Shown piece after piece: positions 4,633 to 4,724 of a DNA stretch of 64,000 nucleotides. Positions within the stretch are counted from its first letter, which is position 1. Each line of letters opens with the position of its first letter. The notes under the pieces are model-generated. The model searched no databases. It was given only the letters and a program-made list of their open reading frames with translations, and was not told where the DNA came from. The translations under genes and the position numbers were made by a program. The stretch is from the NCBI RefSeq assembly GCF_053078305.1, contig NZ_CP166879.1. The stretch is one strand, 5' to 3'.

Positions 4633-4724
4633 TCGTAGGTCGGATAAGACGCCCCGGCGTCGCATCCGACAATGTGCAGGCGTTGATGCCGGATGCGGTG
4701 CAAGCACCTTATCCGGCCTACAGA
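4633..4724. repeat. REP element pair inside the phn operon (phnD-phnE spacer)
   Basis: gtaggtcggataagacgc...gcgtcgcatccgac / gccggatgcgg...ccttatccggcctaca inverted REP motifs. Confidence 0.75.

Follow-up and report, generated by a model that had tools for sequence, protein, structure and literature searches.

The genes of the Escherichia coli phn operon mostly overlap or abut, and the question raised by the phnD-phnE junction is why a 105-nt spacer with a pair of REP palindromes lies there and what that pair might do for the expression of the genes on either side of it. We examined this junction within the window, by which we mean the whole 64-kb stretch of DNA that was analyzed and in which the phn operon lies on the + strand.

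Layout of the phn operon around the phnD-phnE junction

In the window, phnC (2802-3590, +) is followed by phnD (3615-4631, +), which encodes the 338-aa periplasmic phosphonate-binding protein and ends with a TAA stop codon at 4629-4631; phnD was placed from the list of open reading frames and from annotated E. coli loci that are 99 to 100% identical. The permease gene phnE (4737-5516, +) was placed by alignment with MG1655 and FDAARGOS_944 and from PGAP annotation. It begins with the ATG at 4737, encodes an intact protein of 259 aa, and does not carry the 8-bp duplication found in K-12. The genes phnF to phnN lie downstream of phnE. The Shine-Dalgarno sequence of phnE, GGAG (4727-4730, +), is 6 nt 5' of the ATG and was unpaired in the predicted folds. 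The intercistronic spacer runs from 4632 to 4736 (+), exactly the 105 bp given for it in an earlier note on this DNA.

The gaps at successive junctions were 24 nt for C-D, 105 for D-E, 20 for E-F, 0 for F-G, -4 for G-H, -1 for H-I, -8 for I-J, -4 for J-K, 110 for K-L, -4 for L-M, and -1 for M-N. The earlier description of the operon as one whose genes mostly overlap or abut is borne out by these gaps, but it passed over one exception, the 110-nt phnK-phnL spacer (9954-10063), which holds a second intra-operon REP pair (9960-10043, +). The CCTAC/GTAGG ends of this second pair point inward, and its predicted fold has a free energy of -52.3 kcal/mol (z = -5.9).

Anatomy and class of the REP pair

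The spacer contains two REPs, each recognized by its inverted repeat, its core motif, and its fold. REP1 (4635-4671, -) is inverted and Z2-like, with the sequence GTAGGTCGGATAAGACGCCCCGGCGTCGCATCCGACA (reverse complement, TGTCGGATGCGACGCCGGGGCGTCTTATCCGACCTAC). Its own stem occupies 4639-4670, starting 7 nt 3' of the phnD stop, and its hairpin has a predicted free energy of -20.0 kcal/mol (z = -4.1, with none of 200 shuffles as stable). A 15-nt linker, ATGTGCAGGCGTTGA (4672-4686, +), separates it from REP2 (4687-4721, +), which is direct and Y-like, with the sequence TGCCGGATGCGGTGCAAGCACCTTATCCGGCCTAC and a hairpin of -19.8 kcal/mol (z = -4.3, again with none of 200 shuffles as stable). The internal loops of both hairpins are where they are expected for the REP (PU) family. 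Alternatively, REP1 and REP2 can pair with each other to give a single long hairpin (free energy, -50.5 kcal/mol; z = -6.0), whose stem begins 3 nt 3' of the phnD stop and in which the linker is predicted to form the apical stem-loop. A repeat finder detected both intra-REP palindromes as well as the inter-REP inverted repeat. The REP core CTTATCMGRCCTAC, with at most one mismatch allowed, had 28 matches in the window compared to 0.03 expected, and the matches were exact in both arms of the pair, at 4635-4648 (-) and 4708-4721 (+). The palindrome in this spacer is not due to chance.

The element has the features by which the E. coli REP (PU) family is defined: the conserved terminal motif of the approximately 35-nt REP palindrome, CTTATC(C/A)G(G/A)CCTAC / GTAGG; a stable stem-loop with an internal mismatch; and an extragenic position inside a transcription unit. 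We take REP1 to be Z2-like and REP2 to be Y-like on the basis of the type consensus sequences, and the Rfam result agrees with this assignment. Measured against the canonical Y 34-mer, REP2 has five mismatches, which are confined to its upper stem and loop and leave pairing intact, and a search with that 34-mer at three mismatches misses REP2. The match to Rfam family RF02564 (naRNA4, a REP-pair family) scored 69.1 bits on the minus strand at 4638-4718, above the gathering score of 59.5, whereas the plus (mRNA-sense) strand scored 50.5 bits, below threshold. The order of the REPs in naRNA4 is Y then Z2, and along the phn mRNA it is Z2 then Y. Core motif, palindromic arms, folds, and Rfam all confirm the earlier claim of a REP pair in this spacer, and the range of 4633-4724 given for it was correct to within 2 to 3 nt.

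Several other identities were considered for the element. The IHF consensus WATCAANNNNTTR was absent from 4600-4760 even with one mismatch allowed, and identity as a BIME-1 or RIP element (an IHF-binding BIME) was ruled out, given a linker of only 15 nt without that consensus. A scan of 4300-5000 gave no terminator-like site; the sequence 3' of REP2 is CAGACCGGAGCC, with no U-tract, and an intrinsic (Rho-independent) terminator was ruled out, since the hairpin is not followed by such a tract. No promoter-like site was found in the spacer, and an internal promoter was rejected after this negative scan.

The element is, judged by its sequence, REP324 of E. coli K-12 and was already known. The coordinates of REP324 in MG1655 (4323333-4323247) convert to 4634-4720 of the window, and the supplementary table of Harris et al. 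2026 (bioRxiv 10.64898/2026.03.23.713779) classes it as "Tandem" and names phnD as its upstream and phnE as its downstream neighbor. The flanking genes match as well as the coordinates, and the phnD-phnE spacer of the window is 100% identical to those of MG1655 and FDAARGOS_944; the two loci differ in phnE, which is intact in the window and carries the 8-bp duplication in K-12. Full-text literature searches for REPs in the phn operon gave nothing specific beyond this table entry. REP324 itself, which amounts to a small BIME, is an ordinary, catalogued pair for which the function proposed below is the textbook one, and on its own it changes nothing.

Alternative spacer alleles within E. coli

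The phn locus was found in 5,395 of 5,426 complete E. coli genomes. Approximately 3,873 of the genomes carry the REP form of the phnD-phnE spacer (at least 80% coverage of a 185-nt probe), and approximately 1,506 carry an unrelated sequence that extends from the base after the TAA to just 5' of the GGAG, which corresponds to shares of approximately 72% for REP324 and 28% for the replacement. The replacement is built from the palindromes CCCTCTCCC-TTGA-GGGAGAGGG(-TTA-GGGTGAGGGG), and on this sequence we assign it to the BoxC / PIT / TMECO repeat family. The probe for it also matches the MG1655 locus at 164597-164631, where the same BoxC motif was listed by Holder et al. 2015 (PMC4666352). This family resembles REP324 in occupying the same slot between stop codon and Shine-Dalgarno sequence and in folding into a strong hairpin, but it differs in being an unrelated family of the form CCCTCTCCC-N4-GGGAGAGGG-TTA-GGGTGAGGG, with triplex potential, that is neither REP nor RAYT associated.

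The alleles also vary in copy number and orientation. BoxC is present as single forms of 61 nt and 67 nt, as a double form of 124 nt (367 genomes), and as an inverted form of 64 nt, in which the BoxC hairpin and its flank are reversed (L089). In addition, there is an 89-nt REP form in which the center of REP1 is deleted (L006). Each of the E. coli alleles examined folds into a strong hairpin, with free energies from -24 to -73 kcal/mol for the BoxC forms. The REP sequence as such is evidently dispensable at this site, with approximately 28% of E. coli having no REP here.

Such polymorphism is what might be anticipated if the element were a neutral passenger, that is, a selfish or recombination-prone palindrome sitting in a tolerant junction with no meaningful effect on phn expression. 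The existence of the deletion and inversion variants and the interchangeability of the exact element point in the same direction, as does the general accumulation of REP and BoxC families in permissive spacers. BoxC/PIT elements had neither promoter nor terminator activity in earlier tests and have been described as a source of instability (PMC4666352), and the effects of REPs are variable and depend on context (Harris et al., bioRxiv 10.64898/2026.03.23.713779). The distribution of spacers and hairpins across species bears directly on this explanation.

A hairpin follows phnD across species

A PhnD-based scan of species-representative genomes yielded 80 loci, none of them from Escherichia. 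Both gene ends could be placed at the phnD-phnE junction in 72 species, which are phylogenetically clustered, so that the counts given here overstate the number of independent observations. The spacers in these 72 species range from 42 to 279 nt, with a median of 104.5 nt, and their predicted folds range from -19 to -143 kcal/mol, with z scores below -2 relative to shuffled sequences in 71 of the 72. The first paired base lies 0 to 17 nt after the phnD stop and is within 12 nt of it in all but one species. Overall, a strong hairpin follows phnD in 74 of 76 loci, made up of the 72 Enterobacteriaceae species and two Vibrio loci, in which a GC hairpin begins 12 to 16 nt after the phnD stop; the two exceptions (L080 and L081, both Enterobacteriaceae) have a 23-nt spacer without a hairpin.

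The sequences that form this hairpin are diverse. By family, 39 of the 72 spacers are BoxC-like, 26 are REP-like, and 7 are neither. BoxC-like spacers are found in most Enterobacter, Leclercia, Lelliottia, and Kluyvera and also in Buttiauxella and Pseudocitrobacter, and REP-like spacers are found in Citrobacter, Salmonella arizonae and diarizonae, Cedecea, Dryocola, and others. Hairpins unrelated to any repeat family occupy short spacers in Atlantibacter (GTCCTCACGGG-TTCG-CCCGTGAGGAC), in Enterobacillus (GACGGGCGC-TCCG-GCGCCCGTC), and in the unclassified Enterobacteriaceae bacterium B14 (L078). At the phnD-phnE junction, the sequence can vary freely, as can the repeat family, the number of copies, and the orientation, while throughout the surveyed species the hairpin adjoins the phnD stop and the phnE Shine-Dalgarno sequence is left free.

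The E. coli REP pair, which opens with an inverted REP at 3 nt from the stop and continues through the linker to a direct REP with an unusual GGTGCAAGCACC upper stem, aligns with the pairs of Salmonella arizonae and several Citrobacter species, which suggests that the REP allele is probably old rather than a recent insertion in E. coli. One chimeric REP takes the place of the pair in C. werkmanii and S. diarizonae.

The other junctions of the operon provide a point of comparison. Spacers of at least 40 nt were found at D-E in 100% of species, at K-L in 47%, at C-D in 17%, at E-F in 6%, and at all other junctions in 0%. Among the 72 measurable species, D-E is the only phn junction that always holds a strong hairpin, of whatever sequence family. 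The partial occupancy of phnK-phnL indicates that opportunistic insertion does occur in this operon, as a neutral passenger would require. Neutrality is harder to reconcile with the occupancy of D-E in all 72 species, which includes the hairpins outside any repeat family and extends to Vibrio, with the rarity of occupancy at C-D and E-F, which likewise do not overlap, and with the invariable placement of the hairpin against the stop and clear of the Shine-Dalgarno sequence. We consider it somewhat unlikely that the element is a neutral passenger, and the comparison across species instead favors a reading in which selection would act on the hairpin rather than on the REP sequence.

Two of the above observations appear to be modestly new. 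The first is that a hairpin is conserved after phnD while the sequence family that forms it turns over, and the second is that REP and BoxC are alternatives at one site within E. coli.

Proposed role of REP324 as a decay barrier or attenuator

We lean toward the reading that the element is a selected RNA stem-loop that would block mRNA decay or partly attenuate transcription, with phnC and phnD expressed above the genes downstream. REP324 is cotranscribed with a tandem gene pair and follows its upstream cistron, the location of a stabilizer or attenuator. As part of the phnCDEFGHIJKLMNOP mRNA, it would form either two hairpins of approximately -20 kcal/mol or one of approximately -50 kcal/mol directly 3' of the phnD stop, and this stem-loop would stop 3'-to-5' exonucleases (PNPase, RNase II, and RNase R). 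Processed or prematurely ended phnCD transcripts would then outlast the distal mRNA. Some nonintrinsic termination or attenuation, perhaps partly Rho dependent, would probably occur in addition, and the net result would be higher expression of the binding-protein gene and phnC than of phnE and the C-P lyase genes. A role in structure and decay fits better than intrinsic termination, given that the spacer has neither a U-tract nor a promoter-like site.

The closest system for comparison is REP325, an array of five naRNA4 units between yjdM and yjdN (1678-2161) that directly precedes the phn operon. This array curbs transcription into yjdN and stabilizes the yjdM mRNA, and its deletion lowers the yjdM/yjdN ratio from 35 to approximately 1 (bioRxiv 10.64898/2026.03.23.713779). 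It is a partial terminator of the Rho-dependent type, with Rho dependence measured for the full array and none for two to four hairpins, and genome-wide, tandem gene pairs split by a REP show a bias in favor of the upstream member, with a median log ratio of 0.96 versus -0.09 (bioRxiv 10.64898/2026.03.23.713779). The general mechanism put forward in the earlier note, in which the upstream segment is stabilized and downstream expression is lowered, is established for other REPs. REP324 and REP325 share a unit in which a short linker joins an inverted REP to a direct REP and the GTAGG/CCTAC ends point outward. Both lie within an operon between tandem genes, and REP324 is above the naRNA4 threshold. 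They differ in that REP324 is a single pair and REP325 is five tandem units, and in that the order of Y and Z2 relative to the mRNA is reversed, so that the best Rfam match of REP324 is antisense to phn. Moreover, termination and stabilization have been demonstrated for REP325, and it is from such systems that we infer an effect of REP324 on mRNA stability and read-through.

A second comparison is with the malE-malF and hisJ-hisQ REPs, which lie in ABC importer operons, each directly after the binding-protein gene and ahead of a permease gene. According to work of Newbury, Higgins, and co-workers from 1987-88, these intercistronic REPs reportedly stabilize the upstream segment of their mRNAs. 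REP324 has the same placement, likewise without a U-tract, and the proposed outcome is alike, with the binding protein in excess over the membrane components. The phn operon differs in that the ATPase gene phnC is also upstream of the REP and in that 11 catabolic and regulatory genes lie downstream, and also in that stabilization is an established property of the mal element and a presumed one in phn. The earlier note had placed the divide between the transporter genes and the C-P lyase genes, which does not hold, as the permease gene phnE sits downstream of the REP; the actual split is between the binding protein plus the ATPase on one side and the permease and the rest on the other. The earlier interpretation is borne out in part: expression of phnC and phnD above the downstream genes is a plausible direction for the effect, and the hairpin kept after phnD across species lends it indirect support.

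Published expression data offer a limited view of this split. When a phoB deletion was compared to the wild type in K-12 grown in phosphate-free M9, the log2 fold change was -3.2 for phnC (padj 2e-4) and -2.05 for phnD (padj 0.05), while the values for phnE_1 (+1.8), phnF (-0.65), phnG (-1.1), and phnH (-0.65) all had a padj of NA and phnI, phnJ, and phnK were nonsignificant (PMC7657598 supplement). A PhoB-dependent signal for phnC and phnD alone is consistent with a drop after phnD, in a contrast that is gene level and confounded both by polarity from the phnE frameshift of K-12 and by very low counts. In DESeq2, a padj of NA usually reflects low counts. An extract of the basal counts in phosphate-replete LB gives 12 for phnC, 36 for phnE, 20 for phnF, 10 for phnG, 16 for phnJ, and 32 for phnK (bioRxiv 10.64898/2026.03.23.713779), values that are uninformative about the induced operon. 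The supplements of the eLife 2021 3'-end map hold no phn entries. A Rho-binding peak listed near REP324 is antisense to phnD and has no bearing on attenuation in the sense direction.

Alternative roles of the hairpin

The nearness of the hairpin to the phnD stop is also what would be seen if the element were a translational brake on PhnD, with terminating ribosomes stalling at the REP stem, followed by mRNA cleavage and rescue by tmRNA/SmpB, either as the main effect or alongside stabilization. As summarized in PMC12306157, Liang et al. 2015 reported that a REP less than 16 nt after a stop codon stalls terminating ribosomes and lowers translation of the upstream open reading frame. Going by that summary, the REP324 stem, which starts 3 to 7 nt after the TAA, is well within this distance and lowered translation of PhnD is predicted; the first paired base is similarly close, at 12 nt or less, in 71 of the 72 other species. 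The brake, however, predicts less binding protein, opposite to the usual stoichiometry of ABC importers, and a compact decay barrier would place the hairpin near the stop likewise. That braking is what the element is for strikes us as improbable. Part of any gain in phnD mRNA stability may be offset at the level of translation, an effect that was overlooked when the upstream-stabilizing role was first suggested.

A role exerted at the level of DNA or in trans would be of a different kind, with the element serving as a binding site (BIME) for gyrase, HU, or IHF or as the source of a nucleoid-associated, naRNA4-like RNA. BIME-2-type REP pairs bind gyrase, and on the minus strand REP324 passes the naRNA4 gathering score. 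Set against these points are the lack of an IHF consensus in the linker, the naRNA4-like orientation, which runs antisense to the operon and has no promoter-like site close to it, and the replacement of the REP by BoxC or by unique hairpins in other lineages. Furthermore, neither nucleoid compaction nor REP-REP contacts were found for REP325/naRNA4 (bioRxiv 10.64898/2026.03.23.713779). We regard a DNA-level or trans role for REP324 as very improbable.

Implications of a conserved hairpin slot

The decay barrier or attenuator reading can be extended to the whole set of species, in the form of an ancient RNA stem-loop that would be under selection in the phn operon from Vibrio to the Enterobacteriaceae and whose sequence would have been overwritten repeatedly by locally active palindromes. 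We offer this extension tentatively, as possible though open to considerable doubt. It would include the retention by E. coli of at least two nonhomologous functional alleles, REP324 and BoxC, the latter in single, double, and inverted forms, and the expression ratios of PhnD:PhnE and the C-P lyase could differ between the REP and BoxC alleles. If the extension were true, a regulatory slot of fixed position would be filled by mobile palindromes that can stand in for one another, and the locus could help settle the long-running question of REP function.

The E. coli alleles form a natural series between identical flanks, consisting of REP, BoxC-single, BoxC-double, BoxC-inverted, and REP-deleted spacers. 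Together with the inducible and nonessential nature of the phn locus, this series provides a clean test bed for whether REPs act by structure alone, be it through a decay barrier, attenuation, or ribosome stalling, and for measuring what difference it makes which element is present.

The start of phnE

The final question concerns the boundary between the element and phnE. In the K-12 RefSeq annotation, the phnE1 pseudogene starts at the ATG at 4686, which would make REP2 the coding sequence for an N-terminal extension of PhnE. The spacer does contain two start codons in frame, ATG at 4686 and GTG at 4674, but the 17-residue extension belongs to a spacer without a homologous counterpart in 28% of E. 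coli or in other genera, whereas the 14-residue N terminus from 4737 and the (A)CGGAG Shine-Dalgarno sequence are conserved in 70+ species, and PGAP puts the start at 4737 in other strains. We give the extension practically no chance of being real and reject it. The (A)CGGAG motif is the only one in the spacer that is conserved across species, and the K-12 annotation of the phnE start is corrected by the present analysis.

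Start of phnE and alleles of the phnD-phnE spacer

In the K-12 RefSeq annotation (MG1655, NC_000913.3), the phnE pseudogene phnE1 (b4583) begins at an ATG corresponding to window position 4686, which lies inside REP2 of REP324, the REP pair of the phnD-phnE spacer. We rejected this start, since both the PhnE N-terminus and a (A)CGGAG Shine-Dalgarno sequence are conserved at a downstream ATG and the spacer alleles are non-homologous. Judged from this sequence conservation, the real phnE start is the ATG at 4737, giving a predicted product of 259 amino acids.

A palindrome of the BoxC/TMECO family was found in place of REP324 in approximately 28% of complete E. 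coli genomes. In the compared E. coli phn loci (L003, L004, L005, and L089), this spacer occurred as a single form of 61 or 67 nt, a double form of 124 nt, and an inverted form of 64 nt. For the single form, a weak pairing is predicted between the sequence directly after the stop codon (UGUGCUC) and GGAGCC in the Shine-Dalgarno region of phnE. A further locus, from E. coli 2017.13.01CC (L006), carried an 89-nt spacer that is a REP324 variant from which the REP1 centre is deleted (GTAGGTCGGATACATCCGACA), and a shortened hairpin remains after this deletion.

Spacers of the E. coli BoxC type were also present in the phn operons of Pseudocitrobacter faecalis (L009) and P. vendiensis (L010), with the P. 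vendiensis spacer identical to the 61-nt E. coli allele. These two operons were 89 to 95% identical to the window at the DNA level, with PhnD at 99% identity; the DNA identity of the Citrobacter werkmanii operon to the window was approximately 82%. The high phn and PhnD identity, taken together with the E. coli BoxC-type spacer, suggests that the Pseudocitrobacter phn region was exchanged horizontally with an Escherichia-like donor.

A NusG-dependent Rho-binding (rut) peak has been mapped in vitro at MG1655 4323405-4323494 on the plus strand, within phnD and at a listed distance of 72 bp from REP324 (bioRxiv 10.64898/2026.03.23.713779). In the window, this peak corresponds to approximately 4473-4562 on the minus strand, antisense to phnD, and it may end antisense transcripts that cross REP324.

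Other REP elements and RNAs in the window

The second REP pair of the phn operon occupies the 110-nt phnK-phnL spacer (9954-10063), with one REP on the plus strand (9960-9993), the other on the minus strand (10007-10043), and inward-facing CCTAC/GTAGG ends. Its predicted fold is -52.3 kcal/mol, and it scored below the naRNA4 gathering score in the Rfam scan of the window. Across species, the length of this spacer was bimodal (4 to 35 nt in 36 species and 73 to 306 nt in 32). A 432-amino-acid ORF from a mechanical ORF list (9446-10744, plus strand), running through the REP pair into phnL, was dismissed as an open-frame artefact; the true phnL start is at 10064.

Upstream of the phn operon, REP325 consists of five tandem naRNA4/REP units between yjdM and yjdN (1675-2161). 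REP325 is a model REP array for which a dual role as terminator and stabiliser was recently demonstrated (bioRxiv 10.64898/2026.03.23.713779). The upstream region differs in length between the window and strain FDAARGOS_944, so that strains seem to differ in the number of copies.

Elsewhere, a large BIME array (33645-34338) gave seven Rfam naRNA4 matches on the minus strand, and a further REP pair was located at 44816-44893. Gathering-level Rfam matches were also obtained for the sRNA sraL (52128-52268, 153 bits) and for a SECIS_2 element (31125-31179, 87 bits), the latter presumably inside a selenoprotein gene such as fdhF.
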